From NCBI GenBank assembly GCA_030698495.1, contig JAUYKA010000007.1:1-60129 (forward strand): a stretch of DNA of 60,129 nucleotides, written 5' to 3'. The notes beneath the pieces are model-generated. The model did not search any database. It had not been told where the DNA came from and saw only the letters and a list, made by a program, of their open reading frames with translations. This stretch comes from a bacterium (GTDB lineage Bacteria > Patescibacteriota > Andersenbacteria > UBA10190). Shown here one piece after another: positions 1-40,498 of this stretch (positions within the stretch are counted from its first letter, which is position 1; each line of letters begins with the position of its first letter). The translations under genes and the position numbers were made by a program.

Positions 1-102
1 TTGATACGGCTGTAGTGGTCGGCCTGGCGGCAGAAGTTCTTCTTAATAAGAAGTACAAAAAGCCGGCTTGCCGGCCGTAGCTCCGCCAGAGGCGGAGCGG
101 AG

Positions 103-186
103 GCCGGGGTGGTGAAATTGGCAGACACGTACGGTTTAGGACCTTATGTCCGCAAGGACGTGCAGGTTCAAGTCCTGTCCCCGGCA
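103..186 (+). tRNA. tRNA-Leu (anticodon TAG), class II with long variable arm, CCA not encoded
   Basis: Acceptor GCCGGGG/CCCCGGC, anticodon loop TTTAGGA, variable hairpin GTCC-GCAA-GGAC and T-arm GCAGG-TTCAAGT-CCTGT. There is one C/U mismatch in the anticodon stem. Confidence 0.8.
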
Positions 187-189
187 CCC

Positions 190-218
190 TTGACAAAATC
201 TTGTTTTTAGTATATACA
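190..218 (+). promoter_or_regulatory. sigma70-like promoter, TTGACA-17 nt-TATACA
   Basis: TTGACA lies at 190-195 and TATACA at 213-218, about 50 nt upstream of the ORF that starts at 266. Confidence 0.4.
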
Positions 219-265
219 TAAGCAGATCGGTTCTGACTTTTTCTGGGTGCGCCCCGACGGCACTT

Positions 266-1636
266 TTGGCAATGAAATACGAGGAGATTGCGATGGAGAC
301 TATGCTTGTGACCGGGTTGGTATCAGTGTGTGTGGTGGCAGTCTTTTGGCTGCTGATCTTCATCATTTGGTATCCCCTGTTCTTTTCTTCGCCCTTGCTT
401 CTGCCTGATGACAAGGGAAAGAAGAAGAAGAAAAGGCACCTACGAGATGAGACGAGACTGAAAGATGACCTGGAGGGTACAAAAGCTACGGTGGGAGTGA
501 ATATCGTCAGGCTAATAACACCAGATTCATCCGGAAGGGAAGACCGGGAAATCCTGGTTAATCTTGGTGTGGCGGAAAACCGTCGCGCCGATAGGGAGGA
601 CAAACCCTTGGAGGGCGATCACTGGTTGTGCGACGGCCGGCCATTGTGGCTGGCTGCTTTCCAGTTGGTGCCAATGTTGGCTATTGCTATGCCATTGGCG
701 CTCATCTTCGATGCGTTCTTCACACCGCTGATCGTTTTTGTGGCGGTGACCTTGGCGTGGATCCCCTTTTCCTGGTGGTCAGTTGAGGAGAACACCCGTT
801 TCGGTGTCCGGCGATTCGGCCGGCAGCTGAACGGGTATCTTAGACCGGGGTTAGTCTTTCTTGTCCCTTGGTTTGAGGTCGGCTATGTTGTGACCCTGCA
901 GAATTTCGTGTGGGGTCCGCGTGGGGGCGAGGATCCGAACGACGCATTTCACATCGGCGGAGCCATGGGTGACGGGCAAGGAAACCCGGAACCTGGCGTC
1001 TTCAATGTGATGCTCTTAGGCCGGTGGTCAATAAAGGTGGTGATAGCAATCACCGCCAGAGTCCGCCGGGCCAGAAAGCTGGCGTGGTATCGCTGGCTCA
1101 ACGACTATTCCAGTCCGGAAGACCTCGGCGAGCAGTTCGCAGCCGTGGTGGGCTCAATTACGAGCACCAAGGCCAGGGAGGTAGACTCGGAAGGTAGTGG
1201 CGACAAGGATGATCCTCGGCAAGCGTTTGAAGCTTTTCTGCGCTTCCTCAATAGAACACCGGAGATTTCCGGCTCAAGTCTATTGGCTCTGCAAGAGCTG
1301 GGCAGGGAGAGACTGGGCGGCGTTTTGCCGGTCAGCGTGGCGTTTGCCAATGTGATTCCGGGACCGGAGCTGGCCGGATTGCTTCAGCGTGTGGACGAGT
1401 CCAGTGTCGGCCGTCTGCAGGATCAAATGGCCGGCAAAGGAGTTGCCTTGTTACTCGACGAGATCGATGAGGCGATTCGTCGCGTGACGGGCGGACCAAA
1501 TCCGGAATTGGTGGCGGAGGCTTATCGGTTGTATATCCAACAACAGTTTGCTGGACAACCGAGCGGCCTCGAAGCGGTTATTTCCAGTCTGGCTGCGCAA
1601 TGGAGCCGGGCTACAACACGAGGAGATACGACATGA
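266..1636 (+). CDS. Multi-TM membrane protein with a divergent SPFH/band-7-like segment (start codon uncertain)
   Basis: 456-aa ORF with hydrophobic N-terminal helices and a KKKKKR linker. The stretch VRRFGRQLNGYLRPGLVFLVPWFE resembles the start of SPFH/HflK-C domains. The region is GC-richer than its surroundings. Confidence 0.5.
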   Translation: MAMKYEEIAMETMLVTGLVSVCVVAVFWLLIFIIWYPLFFSSPLLLPDDKGKKKKKRHLRDETRLKDDLEGTKATVGVNIVRLITPDSSGREDREILVNLGVAENRRADREDKPLEGDHWLCDGRPLWLAAFQLVPMLAIAMPLALIFDAFFTPLIVFVAVTLAWIPFSWWSVEENTRFGVRRFGRQLNGYLRPGLVFLVPWFEVGYVVTLQNFVWGPRGGEDPNDAFHIGGAMGDGQGNPEPGVFNVMLLGRWSIKVVIAITARVRRARKLAWYRWLNDYSSPEDLGEQFAAVVGSITSTKAREVDSEGSGDKDDPRQAFEAFLRFLNRTPEISGSSLLALQELGRERLGGVLPVSVAFANVIPGPELAGLLQRVDESSVGRLQDQMAGKGVALLLDEIDEAIRRVTGGPNPELVAEAYRLYIQQQFAGQPSGLEAVISSLAAQWSRATTRGDTT

Positions 1637-2694
1637 TAAGACCAGGGCCTGCCGGAAAAGGACGAAGCGGGGGCAAGACGCCCTCGCAGCGGAAACCGTC
1701 ACCGGGTAATGCCGGTAGCGGTACGATGCCTCCGGCTGCGACGACGTCGACGTCCAAGAAGGTCTCGGTTGGCCAGGTGGCTATCTGGATCATGCTTTGT
1801 CCGTTGGTGCTGCTTGTGTCTGTGTTTTGTATGTGGGTTTTGTGGTTGTTTGTCCGCTGGATTTTTACGCCAGCGGCGGCTCCCACCAACCAACCGCAGC
1901 AAACGCAAGCGGCGGAGCAGCCGACGGCATCGGCGGTTCCCGCCAAGAAGGCGGATCCGGCGAAGTGCGTCGAGGAGGTTTGGCAGAAGCTGCGCTATGT
2001 CAGCAACTGCCGCCTGACGCGACTTCAGGAGGAAGTCACGGTGACGTACAATCCCAAGCGGGACGGTCAGATGAAGGCCGTCGACTTGGGAAGCTGCCTG
2101 AAGGCGACGGAGCAGATCGTGTCCGGCCGAAAGGGCAGCCACCTGGCAACGTTCTGCGAGCCGTATCCGCCGGCACAGTTGGAGTTGTGCAATCGGACCG
2201 GCGAAGGAGCGGTGTCACTTAAAGACAACTGGCGCTATGGGCTGACTGGCTGTGGGGAGCTGGTAGCGCTGCAATGGAATAGCAGTGCGCCATCTCCGGA
2301 CGTTACGTATCGTGTAAACATTTTGCACGTGATCTTGGATGATCATAGAGATGTTGTGCACGATAAAGCCGGTGGAGTGCCGGTGCTGCAGGTTATCTGC
2401 CACAATTTGCCGGCGGAGCGCATTTTCCATGTGCCGCTGCCGGCGAAAGTGGGTGACACCGCGGTCAGTTATGACATGGAAGTCAGGCTGATTGACCGCC
2501 ACGGCAGACACATTCCGCAGGAAGCGGGACACAGCCTTTTCGTGGCAGCGGGAAACAGTGTGGAGCTGGCTAACGGTCCACATTGGCGTGGTCACGTAGC
2601 GCCGGGTGACGGGATTTTTGTGGCAAAGATTGCCCACAACTACCCCGACGGCGTTGACGTGCTTCTGGCTGTCAGGCCAGAAATTGTACCTTGA
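1633..2694 (+). CDS. Hypothetical membrane-anchored, Cys-containing extracytoplasmic protein
   Basis: ATG at 1633 is preceded by AGGAGA (1621-1626) and overlaps the upstream stop as ATGA. The protein has a basic N-terminus, one TM helix and a Pro/Gln/Ala linker. I recognised no family motif. Confidence 0.55.
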   Translation: MIRPGPAGKGRSGGKTPSQRKPSPGNAGSGTMPPAATTSTSKKVSVGQVAIWIMLCPLVLLVSVFCMWVLWLFVRWIFTPAAAPTNQPQQTQAAEQPTASAVPAKKADPAKCVEEVWQKLRYVSNCRLTRLQEEVTVTYNPKRDGQMKAVDLGSCLKATEQIVSGRKGSHLATFCEPYPPAQLELCNRTGEGAVSLKDNWRYGLTGCGELVALQWNSSAPSPDVTYRVNILHVILDDHRDVVHDKAGGVPVLQVICHNLPAERIFHVPLPAKVGDTAVSYDMEVRLIDRHGRHIPQEAGHSLFVAAGNSVELANGPHWRGHVAPGDGIFVAKIAHNYPDGVDVLLAVRPEIVP

Positions 2695-2700
2695 GAGTTC

Positions 2701-2755
2701 AAGCCCCTTTTCTTTTTTGCAGCTTGCTGCGAAAGAGAGAGGGGCTTGTTTTTTA
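2701..2755. terminator. Long GC-clamped hairpin with T-run, positioned between convergent genes
   Basis: AAGCCCC...GCAGC-TT-GCTGC...GGGGCTT followed by TTTTTT. It sits between the + gene ending at 2694 and the - gene ending at 2753. Confidence 0.65.
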
Positions 2756-2980
2756 TCCGGTGAAGTATGGGGCGACAATGTTGAAGATGGAGGCGACCAG
2801 ACCGATGAAGACCAGGGCAACAAGTAAGCGCAACATGATCCATTGGAGACGGTCACGTACGGGCGTGTCGCCATAGTTATAGGCGTATTTGGCTCCGGCC
2901 TGCATCATCCAGATAACGATTATAAAAGAGAGAAGAAGCAGAATGGCGTTGACGATGATGTTTATGGATTCGAAGGACAT
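2753..2980 (-). CDS. Small two-TM protein, short relative of the pilin-like family (no signal peptide)
   Basis: 75 aa with two hydrophobic helices separated by the loop AGAKYAYNYGD. It lies at the distal end of the pilin-like array. Confidence 0.4.
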   Translation of the reverse strand: MSFESINIIVNAILLLLSFIIVIWMMQAGAKYAYNYGDTPVRDRLQWIMLRLLVALVFIGLVASIFNIVAPYFTG

Positions 2981-3307
2981 TTATTTAGTAGAAAGTAGAA
3001 AGTAGCAGGTAGTAAGCAGTAAGAATATTATGATTTTAGTATACTGGATTTTAGGTATTTTGACTGCGGGTAAAATAAGTGGCGATGCAAAAAATGATTT
3101 ATTATTTATCGAAGTCGTTGTAAGTTAATCTAGCGGCATACTTTATAGAGCTATGAATATTAGGAAGTTTGTGTACACATATGTCATGCCGGGCTCCGTA
3201 TCAAGTACGGGACAGGCCCGATCCGGCATCCAGTGCATACGTTCTGGATTCCGGATATTTTGCCACAAGCAAAATTCCGGAATGACGAAACTTAATATAA
3301 GTTCATC

Positions 3308-3338
3308 AAAAAAACTCCCGGAATTTGGGAGCTTTTTT
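3308..3338. terminator. Bidirectional intrinsic terminator
   Basis: AAAAAAA-CTCCC-GGAATTT-GGGAG-C-TTTTTT, immediately downstream of the minus-strand gene 3357-3704. Confidence 0.6.
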
Positions 3339-3356
3339 GATAATAATTCAATTCGA

Positions 3357-3704
3357 TTAAGCTCCTTGAATGGCGCCAACAACGAAGTTGACGACCGCAG
3401 CGGCCAAGCCGATAACGATTAAGCCGAGAACGGCATACAGAATGGTGTTTTTAGCTTGAGATGATTGATCTTCGTCACCTTGGGAAAAGATATAACGGAA
3501 GCCGCCAAGAATGAGGAACACGACCGCGGCTAAAGCTGCCAATATAAGTAAACCATTGAGCAGGAAGGTGACGGCGTTGACTAACGAGTTTTGCGCCGTG
3601 CCTTGCGGAGCGGGAACTGTGGTAAGACCTTGCGCCAGGACAATGCCCGGAAGGGCTAACAGAGAAACCGGCGATAAGTGTTTAATGGTTGAGCGGATGT
3701 TCAT
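3357..3704 (-). CDS. VirB2/TrbC-like (T4SS-pilin-like) small membrane protein
   Basis: 115 aa with a signal-like N-terminus, a TM helix, the loop GGFRYIFSQGDEDQ, a Lys-rich turn and a second TM helix. The 3' 75 nt are near-identical to 3828-3902. Confidence 0.7.
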   Translation of the reverse strand: MNIRSTIKHLSPVSLLALPGIVLAQGLTTVPAPQGTAQNSLVNAVTFLLNGLLILAALAAVVFLILGGFRYIFSQGDEDQSSQAKNTILYAVLGLIVIGLAAAVVNFVVGAIQGA

Positions 3705-3785: not shown

Positions 3786-4880
3786 TTATCCGTAAGGCAG
3801 ATTATTGCGAACAATCGCCCAGAGGACGAAGTTGACGACCGCGGCGGCCAAGCCGATAACGATTAAGCCGAGAACGGCATACAAAATGGTGTTTTTAGCT
3901 TGGGCGGAAGCCTGTTCATCGCCTTGAGAAGCGATGTAACGGGCGCCGCCGATTATAATAAAGACGATAGCCCCCAGGCCGACTAGAACCATCAGAACAT
4001 TAAGGGTTGTCCAGATGAGGCCGGGCAGATTGGTAACTCTACCGACTACAGCTTCGTTAACAAAGGCAACGATAGCGGCGGCAAAACCGGTAACGAGCAA
4101 ACCGAGCACGGCGTACAAAATGGTGCGTTTGGCGGTGGCGCTTTTCTGTTCATCGCCCTCGGATGTAATGTACTGGACGCCGCCGTAGATAATAGCTATC
4201 AGAGCAGCCAAGCTGACCAAAACCAAGAAGACGTTGATGATGGTTAGAATCATGTCGGGTAAGGCCATCGTTTCGCCTCGAATAGCGCCGGCGGTAAAGA
4301 CAACGATGGCGAAGGCCAGGCCGACAATGATAAGGCCGGCGACGGCATAGAGGACCGTGCGCTTCCCCTTGGCGGCTTGTTGTTCATCGCCGCCGGATAT
4401 CATATATTGCACGCCGCCATAGATAATGGCGGCGAGATCAATAACAGCAATGAGGGCCAAAAAGACTTTGATAATAGTGAATATCATGTCGGGGAGTTTT
4501 GTGGTTCTGCCTTTCAGGGCACCGCCGGTGAACTGAACAATAGCGGCAGCCAAACCAACGATAAGCAAGCCGACAACAGCAAATAAAACAGTACGTTTTC
4601 CCTTGGCGGCTTGTTGTTCATCGCCGCCGGATATCATATATTGCACGCCGCCATAGATAATGGCGGCGACAGCTATAACGGCTATTAAGGCTAGAAAAAC
4701 ATTAATAATAGTTTGCAGGATATTGGCGAGTGAGCTCGGTTGGCCGTCACCGCATTGCAGTCCCAGGGTGCCGCAGTCGGCATCAGGAAGAAGATCAAGT
4801 TGAGCGGCGGCGGGGAAAACAGTTATTGCTAGTGCGGTTACAGCCAGAGTGAAGATGGTGGATTTGACTATGAATTTCAT
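3786..4880 (-). CDS. Four tandem pilin-like modules fused in one 364-aa polypeptide
   Basis: Signal peptide plus four units of (TM - GGVQY[MI][IT]S[GE]GDEQ - KxKRT[VI]L - TM). The period is 234 nt, and a 69-nt block is identical at 4367-4435 and 4601-4669. Confidence 0.7.
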   Translation of the reverse strand: MKFIVKSTIFTLAVTALAITVFPAAAQLDLLPDADCGTLGLQCGDGQPSSLANILQTIINVFLALIAVIAVAAIIYGGVQYMISGGDEQQAAKGKRTVLFAVVGLLIVGLAAAIVQFTGGALKGRTTKLPDMIFTIIKVFLALIAVIDLAAIIYGGVQYMISGGDEQQAAKGKRTVLYAVAGLIIVGLAFAIVVFTAGAIRGETMALPDMILTIINVFLVLVSLAALIAIIYGGVQYITSEGDEQKSATAKRTILYAVLGLLVTGFAAAIVAFVNEAVVGRVTNLPGLIWTTLNVLMVLVGLGAIVFIIIGGARYIASQGDEQASAQAKNTILYAVLGLIVIGLAAAVVNFVLWAIVRNNLPYG

Positions 4881-4950
4881 GTTTGTGGTTAGGACTATAA
4901 TAAGATATTTTACACCCTTGCGCCTAAACGAGCGACACTACTTGATATAA

Positions 4951-5376
4951 TTATGGTGCTTCAAAGAAAATACCCAAGACAACGTTAACTACTATAGCAG
5001 AGATACCGATAATAATAATACCGGCAACGGCGTACATGATAATTTTTTTGGCGGTGGCGCTTTTTTGTTCATCGCCGAGAGATGTGACATACATCACGCC
5101 GCCCCAGATAACAGCGATGACAGCAACAAAGGCTATAACCGCCAACACAACTTTTATAATTTCTACGGCTAATTCGGAAAAACTGTTGAATTTTTTGACT
5201 TGCGCGTCCTGGGTTTGAAAAGTATCGACTTTGTCGAAGCCGGTACCGAAATCCACCGACAATTTTACCGGTGCGGTTGGTGCGGATAAAACTGGCTGGA
5301 CATTAAATACGCTGAATAAGAGAATAGTAATAATTATTTTGGCAAAAGCAACGTATGGTATAGTGGCGGCTTTCAT
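4951..5376 (-). CDS. VirB2/TrbC-like pilin-family protein
   Basis: 141 aa with a signal peptide, a divergent N-terminal part and the core WGGVMYVTSLGDEQKSATAKKIIMYA followed by a TM helix. Confidence 0.7.
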   Translation of the reverse strand: MKAATIPYVAFAKIIITILLFSVFNVQPVLSAPTAPVKLSVDFGTGFDKVDTFQTQDAQVKKFNSFSELAVEIIKVVLAVIAFVAVIAVIWGGVMYVTSLGDEQKSATAKKIIMYAVAGIIIIGISAIVVNVVLGIFFEAP

Positions 5377-5422
5377 GGAGTTTTATAAACCTAGCTAAGC
5401 ACGGTAAGAAGGATAACTATGA

Positions 5423-6001
5423 CTACTTGAGCGTTGGAAAGTCTTTGGTGGGGTCATAGTTTTTAAGCGGGTCGTTGTCATTGTTGATAGGAATATCTGG
5501 ATTGGCAACTTCTTCGGGACTGTATGGTTTAACAGAAGGCGATGGCGTAGAAGATGCAGCCGGCGTATTGCCGCTGCCAAGGAATATGGTAATCAACACA
5601 TTTACGGCAACGGCTGATATGCCGATGACAAGCAATCCTATGATTGCGTAAAATATAACTTTTTTGGCCGTCCCGCTTTTCTGGTCGTCGCCTAGCGATG
5701 TGATATACATGACTCCGCCCCAAACCAGAGCTCCGGTAGCAATAATGGCGACTACGGCCAAAGCGATTTTCAAGATAGCCACGGCCAGTTCGGCAAAATT
5801 GTTGTATTTTTTTATACCAGAAGAGGGTTGAAGATTACTGACGTTGTCGAATATTGAATTATAGGCAGATGATTGTTGTGCCGGTGCTGCAGCTTGTGCA
5901 GTAAAAGCCGGCAAAATTCTACTGACACAAAACACATCGGGAAATATTATAGCAGCTGTAATCGCAATAGAGATTAAAGTTGTGCGGCTGTAACCATTCA
6001 T
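5423..6001 (-). CDS. VirB2/TrbC-like pilin-family protein with a Pro/Ser-rich C-terminal tail
   Basis: 192 aa with the core WGGVMYITSLGDDQKSGTAKKVIFYA and an extra ~50-aa C-terminal extension. Confidence 0.65.
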   Translation of the reverse strand: MNGYSRTTLISIAITAAIIFPDVFCVSRILPAFTAQAAAPAQQSSAYNSIFDNVSNLQPSSGIKKYNNFAELAVAILKIALAVVAIIATGALVWGGVMYITSLGDDQKSGTAKKVIFYAIIGLLVIGISAVAVNVLITIFLGSGNTPAASSTPSPSVKPYSPEEVANPDIPINNDNDPLKNYDPTKDFPTLK

Positions 6002-6006
6002 AAGAA

Positions 6007-6369
6007 TTATGGATTAGCCAGAAGAGTTTTTAGGGTAGAGATTATCAAGAAGGACACCCCGACGACGACAACACCGATAATGGCATAAAAAATAATTTTT
6101 TTAGCCTTGGCGGCTTTGTTTTCGTCACCCAGAGAAGCAATATACATGATGCCGCCCCAGATTAGCGCGGCCAGGGCGATAATGGCGACTAGGGACAACA
6201 GCCAGTTGATGGCATTGCCGATAACGGTGATGGCGTCCAGTTCCGGTAACCCGAAGTTTAATTTATCGATACCCAGATTAGTTTGCGCAAAAACATCGCC
6301 GGCGGCAGATTCCAGAAGCGCAAGTACTGTAGTGGGGATGATGAATTTTTTAATTTTGGAAAAAGACAT
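6007..6369 (-). CDS. VirB2/TrbC-like pilin-family protein
   Basis: 120 aa with a signal peptide and the core WGGIMYIASLGDENKAAKAKKIIFYA plus a TM helix. Confidence 0.7.
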   Translation of the reverse strand: MSFSKIKKFIIPTTVLALLESAAGDVFAQTNLGIDKLNFGLPELDAITVIGNAINWLLSLVAIIALAALIWGGIMYIASLGDENKAAKAKKIIFYAIIGVVVVGVSFLIISTLKTLLANP

Positions 6370-6380
6370 AACTTATGAAT

Positions 6381-6767
6381 TTAGGGAGTGAAAATTTGTA
6401 ACATTTCGGTCAGTTCAATAATTATCGTGTAAGACAATGCGATGACAATAAGACCAACAATAGCCCAAAATATTATTTTTTTAGCGTGCTGGACGCGATT
6501 ATCGTCGCCTAGTGAAACAACATACATTATTCCTCCCCAAATCAGAGCCAGGAGTGCCAGAAGGCCGACCAGGCCGAGAAGCCAGTTAATAATGTTCTGC
6601 AAAAATAGCTCGATTTTAGTGACACTACCTAATGGATTAGTAAAGCCACTAGAAGATCCTGGCCCGCCTGGATCAACTACTGGTCCTGCCAAAACTATAT
6701 TTGAAGTCGTAATAAGGAAAAAAAACAAAGAAAAAAAGATGATACTGACAATACGTGTAGGTTTCAT
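6381..6767 (-). CDS. VirB2/TrbC-like pilin-family protein
   Basis: 128 aa with the core WGGIMYVVSLGDDNRVQHAKKIIFWA. Its start overlaps the stop of the upstream SBP gene as ATGA. Confidence 0.7.
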   Translation of the reverse strand: MKPTRIVSIIFFSLFFFLITTSNIVLAGPVVDPGGPGSSSGFTNPLGSVTKIELFLQNIINWLLGLVGLLALLALIWGGIMYVVSLGDDNRVQHAKKIIFWAIVGLIVIALSYTIIIELTEMLQIFTP

Positions 6768-8047
6768 TGGGCTGGGGTTAGGTTATTAATCTGCTCCTCG
6801 GCTTGGCGTAGGGCGTCTTCGCTAGTTGCGGCGCCGGTGACAACGTTGTCGATGGCGGCATTCAGGATGGTGTCAACAGCAGCGCTGTCGAAGCGCGGCC
6901 AGCTTTGGGCGGTGATAGCCTGTTCGGCGAAAACGCCGATACTAGCATCACGTTGTAATTCTACCACACTATCGCGGCGGGCGGGCGGAGTCAGAGCAGC
7001 GCGATTGATAGAATCGGACGGATTCTTGCTGGTCAAAAAGCGGACGAAATTCCAGGCCATGTTCGGTGAGCGCGAAGAGTTGGAAACAGCGAAAGGCCAG
7101 TAGGAGGCGAAATTCACGCGGTTGGAATCGGAGCTGCCGGCGATTTGGGGAATTTCGGCGACACCAAAATTAAGGCGGGGGTTTTTGGCTTTGATGGTGG
7201 GGACGCTGTAAGAGTAATTAAACATGACGGCGGTTTTGCCGGCGGCAAAGGCGTCGATGGAGTAATCTTGCTGGAGGTTCCAGGTGTAGACTTTCTTGGA
7301 CTTGTTAGCGAAGTCGGTATAAAAAGTCAGAGCGCGAGCGCCGATATCGTTATTGATGCTCACTTTGTTATTTTGGGCGTCAAAAATAGACAGCCCGCTT
7401 TGCATCATTAACAGCTGGAATATATCGGAGGCGCGATTAATATTGCCGGCGGTGCCAAGAGCGGCGGCGCTTTGTTGGATAGTGCCGAGGCGATTGACTT
7501 TGGTGACACGCTCAATCATTTGTTGAAAATCCGTCCAGGTGCGCGGGGGGCGGGCAATGCCGGCGGCGTTGAGCAGGTCTTTATTGTAATACATGGCCAA
7601 GGTGTCGACGGACGAAGGCAGGGCGTAAACTTGCCCGCCGCGAACCAAGTCGGCAGCGGCAACATCAACAAACTCATCGCGGACGGCGCGTTCGTCAATG
7701 ATGTTAGCGGGCGCCGGAGTCATAAGGCGCTGTTTGTCATTGACCCAGTTGTGATGAATAACAAAAACATCGGGACCGCGGCCTTCGGCTAAAGCGGATA
7801 GTAAGTCGCGTTCGTAGGTGGCGACGGAAGCGATTTTTTTATAGGTGACTTTAGTGCCGTATTGTTCGGCAAAGGCTTTAAGGACGGGTTCCATATCGGC
7901 GCTTTCCTGCCACAACCCCCACACAACCAGTTCTCCGGTGGATTGGTCGACAGCGGTGTTTTGACGGCAGCCAAAGCCGGATAAGGCAAAAACGCCGGTT
8001 AAAAGCAGGACAAGGGCGGGCAACTTAGATGATAATGCCTTGAACAT
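6764..8047 (-). CDS. Extracellular solute-binding protein (ABC-type, sugar-family like)
   Basis: 427 aa with an N-terminal signal/lipobox-like LSGFGC. The overall pattern (VWGLW..., YNKDL, FANKSKKVYTWN) is typical of family-1 SBPs. No permease or ATPase gene is adjacent. Confidence 0.75.
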   Translation of the reverse strand: MFKALSSKLPALVLLLTGVFALSGFGCRQNTAVDQSTGELVVWGLWQESADMEPVLKAFAEQYGTKVTYKKIASVATYERDLLSALAEGRGPDVFVIHHNWVNDKQRLMTPAPANIIDERAVRDEFVDVAAADLVRGGQVYALPSSVDTLAMYYNKDLLNAAGIARPPRTWTDFQQMIERVTKVNRLGTIQQSAAALGTAGNINRASDIFQLLMMQSGLSIFDAQNNKVSINNDIGARALTFYTDFANKSKKVYTWNLQQDYSIDAFAAGKTAVMFNYSYSVPTIKAKNPRLNFGVAEIPQIAGSSDSNRVNFASYWPFAVSNSSRSPNMAWNFVRFLTSKNPSDSINRAALTPPARRDSVVELQRDASIGVFAEQAITAQSWPRFDSAAVDTILNAAIDNVVTGAATSEDALRQAEEQINNLTPAQ

Positions 8048-8056
8048 AACAGAAGT

Positions 8057-8620
8057 TTATTCGGCTGATTTGCCGGTGACTTTAAGCACCAGGCTGTAGT
8101 GGTAGGGACTGGGAGCAAAGTCTTTGACTAAGCTCAAACCGACTGTTTGCGCGATCGACAACATGGTTTCTTTTGAAAAGCGCTGTCCCGCAGGCGGACC
8201 AAGCGGCGTGGCCACAACATCCCAAACAACCACTACCACACGGCCGTTCGGTTTTATCAAACGCTTGGCTTCGGTTAAGATTTTTGCCGGATCGGACTGG
8301 TGTAGTATGTTGGCAACTAACACCCAGTCGGCGTTGCCAGCAGGCAAGGTGCTGCCTTGGTTTTTTTCCAGGTCAGCGCGGACGGTATGAATGACACCGG
8401 CAACCTGTTCGCGCTGGGCGCGGTTTTCCGATTCGGATAATAGATGTGTCATGACATCGACACCAATAACGCTGCCGCTTTGGCCAACAATTTTGGCGGC
8501 GGGAATTAGATAAAATCCCGCCCCGGAGCCTAGATGAACCACACGCTGTCCGGCCTGCAAGCCAAGACGGCGCCAAAATTCTTCGGGACGAATGAAGGAA
8601 GAGGAGTTATTTACTGACAT
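8057..8620 (-). CDS. Class I SAM-dependent methyltransferase
   Basis: 187 aa with the motif I-like sequence VVHLGSGAGFY and an acidic post-I residue (IGVDV). Confidence 0.7.
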   Translation of the reverse strand: MSVNNSSSFIRPEEFWRRLGLQAGQRVVHLGSGAGFYLIPAAKIVGQSGSVIGVDVMTHLLSESENRAQREQVAGVIHTVRADLEKNQGSTLPAGNADWVLVANILHQSDPAKILTEAKRLIKPNGRVVVVVWDVVATPLGPPAGQRFSKETMLSIAQTVGLSLVKDFAPSPYHYSLVLKVTGKSAE

Positions 8621-8786: not shown

Positions 8787-11285
8787 CTACTCCCCTATCC
8801 AGCTGGTGAAGGCGGCGACTTTACCGCTTTGCGGTGTGGGGCGCATAACACGTACACCCTGGGTAGCACGACCGAGCGAGCTGACACCGGCGGCGTCAAT
8901 ACGAATGACTTGGCCTTTGCCGGAAATAATAAAGAGATCGGTGGTGCTTATCTTGTCGGAAGCCAATACGGAAGCGGTAACAATGGCACCGGTTTTGGCC
9001 GTTACTTTGGCGGTTTTTATGCCGGAGCCGCCGCGTTTTTGCCGGCGGTATTCGGTTAACTTAGTGCGTTTGCCGTAACCCTCTTCGGTAATCACTAGAA
9101 CTTCCTGGGCTTTAGCGACGTCGGCGGGAATAACATGCATAGATACAACGTTGTCATTTTTCTTTAAGTGGATGCCGCGTACACCGGCGGCGGTTCGCCC
9201 CATAGGACGAACGTCTTTTTCGGAAAACCGAACCGCTTGACCGGCGGCGGTAATCAGCAGGATTTCGTCTTTACCGGTGGAAATGGCGACCCATTCCAGC
9301 GTATCGTCGTTCTTGATGTTGATTGCTTTTAGACCGGAGCGGCGGATGTTAATAAAATTCTGCCGGGAAGTCTTTTTTACCAAACCTTGTTTGGTGGCCA
9401 TGAACAGGTATGCCCCCGATTCATCGGCACTGGGCAGAGCTTGAACGGCGGTGACTTTTTCGCTTGGTCCCAGCTCAAGAAAATTCTGCAGCGCCTGTCC
9501 TTTGGCGGTACGGGTGGTAGCGGGGATTTCATAAGCTTTGATAGAAAATACGCGTCCCTGATTGGTAAACAATAACAGCTCCTTATGAGTGGTAGTGGCC
9601 AAAAAAATCTCAACCACGTCTTCTTCTTTGGTGGTCATCCCCCTAACGCCTTTACCGCCGCGTCCTTGGACTTGGTAGGTGGAAGTAGACAGTCTCTTGA
9701 TGTAGCCGCCGCGGGTGACGGTAACGATAGTGGGGTCGTCGGGAACAAGATCTTCCTGGGAAAAGTCCCCGACTGGCTGACTAAAAACACGCGTGCGGCG
9801 ATCGTCGCCGTATTGAGCTGATAGGTCGGTATAGTCTTGCTTTATCATGCTTAGAACCTTTTTGGGGTCGCGCAAAATGCTTTCCAGTTCGTGAATAAGG
9901 CGGCGTTTTTCTTTCAGTTCGTCTTCTATTTTTTTCCTTTCCAAACCGGCCAATGTTTGCAGGCGCATTTCCAAAATAGCAGTCGCTTGAGCGTCGCTGA
10001 AACGAAATTGCTTGCGCAGGTTAATATGGGCGGTTTCTTTAGTGTGACTTTTCTTAATAGTGTCGATAACCCGATCGATATGATCAAGCGCCTTACTTAA
10101 GCCTTCCAATATATGCGCTCGGTCGCGCGCGCGGTCCAGTTCAAACTGGGTGCGGCGAGTGATGACAATTTGGCGATGATTGATGTGTTCCTGTAAAACT
10201 TCTTTAAGACTCAACACTTTGGGCTGCCGACCTTCATCCACGAGGGCAATCATATTGACGTGGAATGTTTTTTGCAGGTCGGTTATGGAAAATAGCCGGT
10301 TGAGAACTTTTTTGGGATAGGCTTCTTTTTTTAGCTCGATGACGACTCTAATACCATCTTTATCGGATTCATCGCGAATGTCTTTGATGCCTTCAATTTT
10401 TTTGTTTTTAACGGCGTCGGCGATTTTTATAATTAGCTGGGCCTTATTCACAAGATAAGGGATTTCCCGGACGATAATGCGATGCTGGCCGGTTTTGTAC
10501 TCTTCGATATCGGCTAAGGCACGCATTACTACACTGCCTTTGCCGGTAGCATAGGCTTGAAGGATCTCCTGTTTGTTATATATAGCCGCGCCAGTGGGAA
10601 AATCAGGACCCTTAATATATTGCATTAAGGTCTCAACAGTGGCATTCGGTTTGTCTATTAAATGAATGGCGGCGGCACAAACTTCGCGTAAATTGTGAGG
10701 GGGAACAGTGGTTGCCATGCCGACGGCAATACCCAGCGTGCCGTTAACGATGAATTGAGGGATAGCGGATGGCAACACCGCCGGTTCTTTTCTGGTGCCA
10801 TCGTAATTGTCGCGCATGTCTACCGTGTTTTTTTCAATGTCCAACATAATTTCGTCGGAAATTTTTGCCAGCTTAGCTTCTGTATAACGCATAGCCGCGG
10901 GTGAATCACCATCAATACTCCCCCAGTTGCCTTGGCCAGAAATGAGCTCGTAGCGCATGGAAAAATCTTGCGTTAAACGAGCCAGGGCATCATACACGGC
11001 AATGTCTCCGTGGGGGTGATATTTACCAAGAACGTCTCCGATAACGTGCGCTGATTTGCGGTACTTGGCTGTAGAACGAAGCCCTTGTTGCCACATAGAG
11101 TATAGGATACGTCGAGCGACTGGTTTCATACCGTCGCGTACATCCGGTAACGCGCGTTGGACAATGACGCTCATGGCATAGTCCAGGTAGCTTCGCTGTA
11201 TTTCAGCAGACAATCCTTGCTGAATTAATTTGCCAATATCAGAATGACTGCTGCGTTCCGGCGCCGGTTGAATCTTTTTAGGCAT
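8787..11285 (-). CDS. gyrA: DNA gyrase subunit A
   Basis: 832 aa. It has the N-terminal sequence ...AMSVIVQRALPDVRDGMKPVARRILY, the catalytic AAMRYTE motif and C-terminal beta-pinwheel repeats. Confidence 0.97.
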   Translation of the reverse strand: MPKKIQPAPERSSHSDIGKLIQQGLSAEIQRSYLDYAMSVIVQRALPDVRDGMKPVARRILYSMWQQGLRSTAKYRKSAHVIGDVLGKYHPHGDIAVYDALARLTQDFSMRYELISGQGNWGSIDGDSPAAMRYTEAKLAKISDEIMLDIEKNTVDMRDNYDGTRKEPAVLPSAIPQFIVNGTLGIAVGMATTVPPHNLREVCAAAIHLIDKPNATVETLMQYIKGPDFPTGAAIYNKQEILQAYATGKGSVVMRALADIEEYKTGQHRIIVREIPYLVNKAQLIIKIADAVKNKKIEGIKDIRDESDKDGIRVVIELKKEAYPKKVLNRLFSITDLQKTFHVNMIALVDEGRQPKVLSLKEVLQEHINHRQIVITRRTQFELDRARDRAHILEGLSKALDHIDRVIDTIKKSHTKETAHINLRKQFRFSDAQATAILEMRLQTLAGLERKKIEDELKEKRRLIHELESILRDPKKVLSMIKQDYTDLSAQYGDDRRTRVFSQPVGDFSQEDLVPDDPTIVTVTRGGYIKRLSTSTYQVQGRGGKGVRGMTTKEEDVVEIFLATTTHKELLLFTNQGRVFSIKAYEIPATTRTAKGQALQNFLELGPSEKVTAVQALPSADESGAYLFMATKQGLVKKTSRQNFINIRRSGLKAINIKNDDTLEWVAISTGKDEILLITAAGQAVRFSEKDVRPMGRTAAGVRGIHLKKNDNVVSMHVIPADVAKAQEVLVITEEGYGKRTKLTEYRRQKRGGSGIKTAKVTAKTGAIVTASVLASDKISTTDLFIISGKGQVIRIDAAGVSSLGRATQGVRVMRPTPQSGKVAAFTSWIGE

Positions 11286-40416: not shown

Positions 40417-40426
40417 GTGTGATGTG

Positions 40427-40498
40427 TGGGCCCGGCAGGGGTCGAACCTGCGACCACGCGCTTATAAGACGCGCGCTCTACCACTGAGCTACGGACCC
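40427..40498 (-). tRNA. tRNA-Ile (anticodon TAT)
   Basis: The reverse complement reads GGGTCCG...GAGC-G-CGCGT-CTTATAA-GCGCG-TGGTC-GCAGG-TTCGACC-CCTGC-CGGGCCC-A. Confidence 0.82.

Follow-up and report, generated by a model that had tools for sequence, protein, structure and literature searches.

The poly-pilin gene and its four modules

We describe a gene on contig JAUYKA010000007.1 of GenBank assembly GCA_030698495.1, from an uncultured, ultra-small bacterium (Candidatus Andersenbacteria, phylum Patescibacteria); positions 1 to 60,129 of the forward strand of this contig make up the window, by which we mean the whole stretch of DNA that was analysed. The gene, which we call the poly-pilin gene, carries in one uninterrupted reading frame four modules of a type IV secretion system (T4SS) pilin family. 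An earlier note on this DNA, made from its letters alone, had read it as one signal peptide followed by four complete pilin modules, each with two transmembrane (TM) segments, repeating with a period of 234 nucleotides (nt) or 78 amino acids (aa), and both the domain structure and the period hold. The gene and its parts are as follows.

3786..4880, minus strand: poly-pilin open reading frame (ORF), 364 aa, uninterrupted; signal peptide, Cys-loop head and four PF18895 modules (PF18895, NF045849)
4803..4880, minus strand: predicted Sec signal peptide, aa 1-26, MKFIVKSTIFTLAVTALAITVFPAAA followed by Q (from hydropathy and orthologue alignment)
4734..4802, minus strand: N-terminal head containing a C-x6-C loop (DCGTLGLQCG), present once and without copies in the linkers
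4500..4733, minus strand: module 1, aa 50-127, a two-helix hairpin with a confident AlphaFold2 model
4266..4499, minus strand: module 2, aa 128-205
4032..4265, minus strand: module 3, aa 206-283
3789..4031, minus strand: module 4, aa 284-364, the terminal module, in one group with its counterparts at the end of other poly-pilins and with the single pilin downstream

The assignment of the four modules rests on profile matches, hydropathy and internal motif spacing. Against Pfam PF18895 (T4SS_pilin) the protein scores 127.7 bits (gathering score 26.6, E 1.8e-37) in four separate stretches, and against NCBIfam NF045849 it scores 91.9 bits (curated cut-off 40), again in four stretches, one per module. 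Hydropathy resolves one N-terminal hydrophobic leader and then eight TM-length segments. The module period is exactly 78 aa (234 nt), as shown by the anchor motif I[YI]GG[VA][QR]Y, which is found at aa 75, 153, 231 and 309, and the 234-nt spacing is also seen by a repeat search (families D2 and D3). Tandem Repeats Finder detected no 234-nt array in the gene; it missed the array because the module copies are less than 75% alike at the DNA level (54-73% identical). As proteins, modules 1 and 2 are 76% identical, the pairs 1/3, 2/3 and 3/4 are 58% identical, and the pairs 1/4 and 2/4 are 41-44% identical. A model of the single module, computed with AlphaFold2 from a 37-sequence module alignment, is a helical hairpin with helices at residues 2-30 and 36-69 (predicted local distance difference test score, pLDDT, 96.4).

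Each of the four hairpins retains the residues that are conserved in the family (GG..Y..S.GD...AK...YA..G), and the C-x6-C head stands before module 1 only. The modules are joined by the short linkers KLPDM, ALPDM and NLPGL, one of the junctions reading ...GALKGRTTKLPDMIF..., and the signal peptide is predicted to be cleaved after A-x-A and before a conserved Gln, a pattern that is kept in the orthologues. An exact-sequence look-up of the protein matched no other contig.

Relatives, origin and age of the repeat

The gene belongs to a block on one strand, in the order gyrA, a methyltransferase gene, a solute-binding protein (SBP) gene, four single pilins, the poly-pilin and one single pilin. 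At this next-to-last position, in the same gene arrangement and with 42-48% identity, we find a poly-pilin on four other contigs: L001 (protein P0002, five modules), L002 (P0007), L008 (P0005) and L012 (P0004), the last three with four modules each. Three Andersenbacteria genomes (L009, L010 and L011) keep the synteny of gyrA, methyltransferase and SBP with the poly-pilin missing; the arrays of L009 and L010 are composed of 2+1+1+1 modules and that of L011 of five single genes. One of these, L011_g4, sits at the equivalent position and encodes 123 aa with one module, behind a signal peptide (...AVATLSLAVFPVSAQL) that resembles that of the poly-pilin.

In a tree of modules, the last single pilin and all poly-pilin modules share one clade. 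Across poly-pilins the terminal modules are orthologous by position, and the internal modules group by protein, a within-protein clustering from which concerted evolution follows. The linkers, in which we find no signal-peptide remnants, look like the short N-terminal tail with which mature single pilins begin. Because L011_g4 provides a one-module counterpart, because the linkers are tail-like and because no signal-peptide remnant is present, comparison shows that the poly-pilin originated by tandem amplification of a mature-pilin unit within a single gene, the next-to-last one of a pilin operon, and that the copies then evolved in concert. The amplified unit was the short N-terminal tail plus the helical hairpin, with the signal peptide and the Cys-loop head remaining single. 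The earlier note had asked whether related genomes might have four separate genes with stops that were lost here; the relatives have at this position a gene of four or five modules or a lone one-module gene, and never four genes. A stop-loss fusion of four genes is rejected on the linkers and on the one-module orthologue with its similar signal peptide.

Two-module pilins with linkers of about 40-60 aa occur elsewhere in the arrays (L009 14379-15104, L010 14393-15067 and L002 1700-2479). Since their modules are of different pilin types, multi-module pilins arose more than once, and these genes may have taken a different route, perhaps gene fusion. If we count the modules of the pilin genes upstream of a small leaderless module that lies downstream of the array, leaving that module out, the arrays hold 5, 5 and 5 modules where the poly-pilin is missing (L009, L010, L011) and 9, 9, 9 and 10 where it is present (window, L002, L008, L001). 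Conjugative pili are built in five-fold layers, and it is a speculation that the pattern of 5 versus 9-10 modules could be linked to this symmetry.

A tblastn locus search with the poly-pilin protein gave five loci, none of them a true poly-pilin. In L003, L004, L006 and L007 the matches are arrays of separate one- or two-module genes, of which tblastn joined adjacent ones, and in L005 only single-module ORFs are found, the contig ending inside the match. Locus L006 (CAZHXI010000004.1) is labelled 'uncultured Gammaproteobacteria bacterium' and has an array of patescibacterial type with three PF18895-like genes, so that it may be a mis-binned contig.

How old the repeat is can be read from the differences between its copies, for which three further features of the gene are needed.

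4600..4669, minus strand: gene-conversion tract, module 1 copy, 70 nt exact, encoding VAAIIYGGVQYMISGGDEQQAAKG
4366..4435, minus strand: gene-conversion tract, module 2 copy, 70 nt exact
3826..3902, minus strand: near-identical tract in module 4, 77 nt with 2 mismatches against the downstream pilin gene at 3382-3458

From an identical block between modules 1 and 2, which it put at 69 nt, the earlier note concluded that the expansion was recent or was being homogenised. The block is exact and its true length is 70 nt (4366-4435 = 4600-4669); the homogenisation stands and the recent expansion does not. Outside the block, modules 1 and 2 are 62% identical and the proportion of differing synonymous sites (pS) is 0.74, so that synonymous sites are saturated and a recent duplication of the modules is rejected. 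The chance of a 70-nt exact match at a 62% background is about 0.62^70 (<1e-13), and because of the low identity and saturated synonymous sites around it we take the block as a gene-conversion tract in an old duplication. On this evidence the internal modules are still exchanged via gene conversion. The ratio of non-synonymous to synonymous divergence (dN/dS) between the modules is 0.2-0.4, and every module is therefore under purifying selection. In the orthologous poly-pilins, exact internal repeats do not exceed 23 nt. As judged from these comparisons, the poly-pilin architecture is stable rather than transient.

These data bear on two further explanations of the gene. The array might mainly serve as a recombination reservoir that donates sequence to the neighbouring pilin genes, with antigenic or host-range variation as the outcome, and the earlier note had listed such a donor cassette among its implications. 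The 70-nt tract, the 77-nt tract shared with the downstream pilin gene and the concerted evolution of the internal modules speak for it, and conversion with a neighbouring pilin gene does occur. Yet the ORF is whole: it has a start codon and a signal peptide and is not interrupted by stops, whereas silent cassettes are, as a matter of general knowledge, normally without expression signals; its position and architecture are kept at 42-48% identity under purifying selection; and the other poly-pilins are free of long exact repeats. A pure donor cassette is thus disfavoured, and we regard a reservoir as the main role of the array as very improbable. The second explanation is an assembly artefact, by repeat expansion or chimera. 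A 70-nt exact repeat could mislead an assembler that uses short k-mers, and the true copy number could then exceed four; but the modules are too diverged in DNA to collapse or expand, all junctions are unique sequence, including the one between the right of module 1 and the left of module 2, and independent assemblies from other samples contain genes of four or five modules in the same synteny. The probability that we assign to an artefact is close to negligible.

A proposed intact chain and its alternatives

Concatenation of this kind extends well beyond the five syntenic contigs. An exhaustive HMMER search of 1.84 billion representatives (50%-identity) yields 20,728 relatives at E<=1e-3, and among the 150 best representatives of these, 125 carry 2-11 modules and 41 carry at least four. 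The highest number among the 150, 11 modules, is that of P0058 (1147 aa), and Pfam agrees with 11 stretches. A profile search for further homologues gained two sequences.

We collected 325 linkers from 133 multi-module proteins. They are 4-114 aa long with a median of 14, some being only 4-5 residues long, and no junction motif is common to all of them. The motif is not kept among the syntenic orthologues either, where the corresponding stretches read SSGL/SGGL/TGGL (P0004) and GLPGGNNLP (P0007), so that the conserved cleavage motif which the earlier note had proposed to look for at the module junctions is absent at both levels. Two further readings of the junctions are rejected: a sortase LPXTG signal in linkers such as 'LPTGL' and 'LPGG', since the spacing is wrong and the motif is missing from the linkers of the window gene, and internal translation starts at the junction Met codons (DM-IFTII, DM-ILTII), which are not kept in orthologues.

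Eleven multi-module proteins have C-terminal extensions of 60-578 aa. In two of these eleven, P0148 (618 aa) and P0157 (612 aa), the extension holds an SLT lytic transglycosylase (VirB1-like) domain, which comes after four modules. An SLT domain must be extracytoplasmic; the fusion therefore supports the predicted topology with the C-terminus outside and ties poly-pilins to T4SS biology. In the Saccharibacteria locus L004, a two-module pilin heads an array that lies next to, and divergent from, the genes for PrgI/VirB3 and a VirB4-like ATPase; locus L007 is another case of a two-module gene beside a saccharibacterial T4SS.

As to family membership, two neighbouring pilins of the window score 25.3 and 26.6 bits against PF04956, just under the cut-off of 27.9, and multi-module relatives lie above it (P0058 at 144.6, P0107 at 109 and P0121 at 98.9 bits). 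The NF045849 match is a statement of homology only, for its 'equivalog' label cannot hold for a four-module protein of another phylum. Matches to DctQ, cytochrome and other TM-family Pfam models are rejected, as they are under their cut-offs and reflect hydrophobic composition. The pilins of the window also match weakly the NCBIfam models of the conjugation membrane proteins pLS20_p028 and MMCAP2_0566, which suggests that VirB2-like hairpins may be more widespread in monoderm conjugation systems than is usually stated.

The poly-pilin gene is a real, conserved gene of Candidatus Andersenbacteria. We read its product as a covalent tetramer of VirB2-like T4SS pilin units that is kept intact, and we put the chance that this reading is right somewhat above even. 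In this mechanism, the Sec signal peptide would be cleaved and the eight helices would enter the membrane as four hairpins, each module with both ends outside (N-out/C-out), so that the N-terminus, the three short linkers and the C-terminus would lie outside and the four GGDEQ..AKGKR loops in the cytoplasm. The polypeptide would then remain uncut, a pre-linked string of four non-identical pilin subunits that would work with the five single-module paralogues and join a pilus-like or conduit structure of a patescibacterial T4SS whose genes would lie elsewhere in the genome. The covalent links would fix the order of neighbours and a 1:1:1:1 stoichiometry, and the string might act, for example, as a protofilament segment, a nucleus or an adaptor.

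Several observations favour an intact chain. The chain has polarity, since the head is found only on the first unit and the last module is positionally orthologous, and this polarity, the lack of a junction motif even in orthologues and the linkers of only 4-5 residues all argue for it. So do the relatives in which the module string carries fused extracellular domains, and the lack of a conserved protease gene in the synteny block. Of the implications that the earlier note drew, namely proteolytic maturation into subunits, a pre-assembled 8-TM protomer and a donor cassette, the protomer is the best supported, which is not to say that it is proven. Its closest functional analogy, and an analogy only, is the fused-hairpin proteolipid of A/V-type ATPases.

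Other observations weigh against the intact tetramer or its placement in a T4SS. A Pfam scan of the large ORFs in the 60-kb window turned up neither an ATPase gene nor a channel gene of a T4SS, a sequence-profile search of the PDB returned 0 hits and no specific VirB2 match, and Foldseek, run with the single-module model against the PDB, returned generic helical hairpins, none at E<=0.001. This last result is uninformative for VirB2 membership, because a helical hairpin is not discriminating. The structure of the tetramer, whose prediction the earlier note had proposed, comes out with a leader helix and eight long helices in four hairpins; the whole-protein AlphaFold2 model, made from an 8-sequence alignment, is otherwise unreliable (pLDDT 55, predicted template modelling score, pTM, 0.35), and we use its secondary structure alone and do not interpret the packing of the hairpins. 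Since the number of modules ranges from 2 to 11, no fixed ring stoichiometry explains the chains. To our knowledge no pilus has been seen for the PF18895 family, for which 'pilin' is a label of homology. Finally, VirB2/TrbC pilins are known for proteolytic maturation, with C-terminal trimming and head-to-tail cyclisation, and the small-residue motifs after TM2 of modules 1 and 2 (TGG/A and AGA/I, the slash marking the putative cut) are ones that signal peptidase could in principle cleave.

These last two points are also where a polyprotein finds its footing. The chain would be cut at its extracellular linkers, and perhaps cyclised as in VirB2/TrbC, so that a single round of translation and export would supply four monomeric pilin variants in a constant equimolar ratio. 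It fits this scheme that the repeated unit is a mature pilin minus its signal peptide, that TM2 runs from inside to outside as a signal peptide does, and that any number of modules from 2 to 11 would be compatible with cleavage. What tells against it is that no motif is kept at the junctions even in syntenic orthologues, that the shortest linkers offer 4-5 residues only, that the hydrophobic cores of TM2, at about 20 residues, exceed the h-region of a typical signal peptide, that no conserved peptidase adjoins the arrays, and that the modules are diverged and position-specific rather than equivalent. Proteolytic maturation is a plausible reading and the main rival of the intact chain, though clearly the less likely of the two.

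A lesser alternative is a polytopic membrane scaffold or anchor, made of pilin-like hairpins that would never be drawn into a filament and might serve as a platform on which single pilins or extracellular domains sit. In some relatives the module string is the N-terminal membrane part that bears SLT or other extensions, and locus L003 (Parcubacteria) encodes, at 4064-6682 and 6686-7732, two proteins (872 and 348 aa) that each have a single pilin module at the C-terminus, in which the pilin hairpin appears to anchor large extracellular domains. The window is without T4SS genes, and pulling an 8-TM chain out of the membrane should be mechanically demanding. Against a scaffold stand the full set of family-conserved residues in every module, which is expected if pilin-type contacts persist, and the constant location of the poly-pilin gene within a pilin operon. 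Weighing the two sides, we find a scaffold improbable.

Genomic setting, known systems and significance

The genes and features around the poly-pilin, in the order of transcription, are listed here.

8787-11285, minus strand: gyrA, in the same-strand block
8057..8620, minus strand: class I methyltransferase, between gyrA and the solute-binding gene; syntenic neighbour
6764..8047, minus strand: SBP_bac_1 solute-binding protein, heading the pilin genes; syntenic in all relatives
6381..6767, minus strand: first single-module pilin, 128 aa; its start overlaps the SBP stop
6007..6369, minus strand: single-module pilin, 120 aa (PF18895)
5423..6001, minus strand: single-module pilin, 192 aa (PF18895)
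4951..5376, minus strand: single-module pilin, 141 aa (PF18895)
3357..3704, minus strand: last single-module pilin, 115 aa, the nearest paralogue of module 4
3303..3343, minus strand: terminator-like hairpin, 17 pairs and a T-run, directly 3' of the last pilin gene
2753..2980, minus strand: leaderless 75-aa pilin-like two-helix module, divergent (module hidden Markov model E 6e-7; NF045849 E 0.002)

Six PF18895 genes thus follow one another on one strand between 3357 and 6767, with nine modules between them, and the leaderless seventh lies further down. The hairpin at 3303..3343 probably marks the end of the operon. Shine-Dalgarno sequences are missing from most genes of the array. It is unusual for a pilin module to be leaderless; genes that match the one at 2753-2980 in size and position follow the arrays of L010, L011 and L012. 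The GyrA of the window shares 70-78% identity with those of Candidatus Andersenbacteria. The solute-binding gene is MalE-like and has no adjoining ABC permease or ATPase gene. Every Andersenbacteria locus examined (L001, L009-L011) keeps this gene paired with the pilin genes, a pairing that points to a functional link between substrate binding and the pilin system.

In the Pfam scan, the large ORFs of the window are mostly housekeeping genes, plus an ABC export system. Positions 1-3000 have a G+C content of 54-59%, compared with about 45-50% in the adjacent pilin operon (3-7 kb). Two overlapping ORFs on the plus strand, 266-1636 and 1600-2694, have no Pfam match; similar-sized genes are convergent to the array in L009-L012, one of them with a Band_7 match in L012, and the two ORFs are probably conserved neighbours of the array. 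Among the 13 tRNA genes of the window, ARAGORN reports a tRNA-Ile with anticodon TAT at 40426-40498 on the minus strand, an anticodon that is uncommon among bacteria.

VirB2-type pilins are thought to be drawn singly from the membrane and then polymerised by the T4SS. In Patescibacteria the pilin arrays are essential for life as an epibiont, yet we know of no pilus that has been seen there. Tandem arrays of 2-11 divergent VirB2-like pilin genes have been described in Patescibacteria (Quinonero-Coronel et al. 2025, PMC12102498) and have been reviewed (PMC12857230); in S. epibionticum they have proved essential (Wang et al. 2023, PMC10633639). As far as the accessible text of these sources goes, the published arrays share with that of the window the protein family (PF18895/PF04956 profiles) and the phylum and consist of separate genes, whereas the window gene fuses four units behind one signal peptide and its array has no virB4 adjoining within 60 kb; fused multi-module pilins are not mentioned in those portions of the three papers. 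Targeted phrase searches of the literature for fused pilins gave no relevant match, and in the searchable literature we find, in agreement with the earlier note, no described poly-pilin of this family.

Other systems are alike in part. The VirB2/TrbC/TraA pilins of diderm T4SSs (PF04956) likewise have a signal peptide and a two-helix hydrophobic hairpin with both termini outside; in contrast, the poly-pilin belongs to a monoderm host, its loops are acidic (GGDEQ) and its architecture is multi-module. The 'Mbov_0395 family pilin-like conjugal transfer protein' of Mycoplasma integrative and conjugative elements (NF045849) also serves monoderm conjugation and matches each poly-pilin module, but that model comprises 80 positions, a single module, from another phylum, and no such element surrounds the poly-pilin. 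Bartonella and Anaplasma T4SS loci contain tandem VirB2 paralogues with a proposed role in surface-interaction variation (as cited in PMC12102498); there too pilin genes were amplified and diversified, but as separate genes in diderm pathogens and not as intragenic concatemers.

The same design is met outside secretion in the c/K proteolipids of V-/A-ATPases, where an oligomerising two-helix hairpin is tandem-duplicated with a copy number that varies between lineages, an example being the 13 fused hairpins in the A-ATPase of Methanopyrus kandleri (PMC3639240). Homology to the poly-pilin is not detectable: the Foldseek comparison with subunit c (1a91) gives a non-significant E of 3.1, and the poly-pilin has no ATP-synt_C match in Pfam or NCBIfam. 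The machines differ as well, ATPase rings having a fixed stoichiometry and pilin strings 2-11 modules.

What is new is therefore the fused pilin, an undescribed yet widespread domain architecture, within a pilin family and gene arrays that were known. For annotation, it means that counts of pilin genes understate the number of pilin units, six genes standing for nine modules in the window. The class amounts to a natural experiment on the neighbours of a subunit, in which the linker lengths limit which neighbours can be joined and the order of modules gives polarity, and its fusions to a VirB1-like transglycosylase back the predicted topology. Should the chains be cleaved, they would be, as far as known, an undescribed kind of pilin polyprotein; should they be intact, they would limit how a T4SS structure of monoderm, ultra-small bacteria can be built and by what mechanism it assembles. 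More specifically, though with less than an even chance, concatenated VirB2-like pilins of 2-11 hairpins may be inserted intact into the patescibacterial T4SS pilus or conduit as pre-linked protofilament segments, or as closed rings after head-to-tail ligation. In that case the gene itself would set the order of the subunits, and the machine would have to pull chains of several hairpins out of the membrane instead of one pilin at a time.

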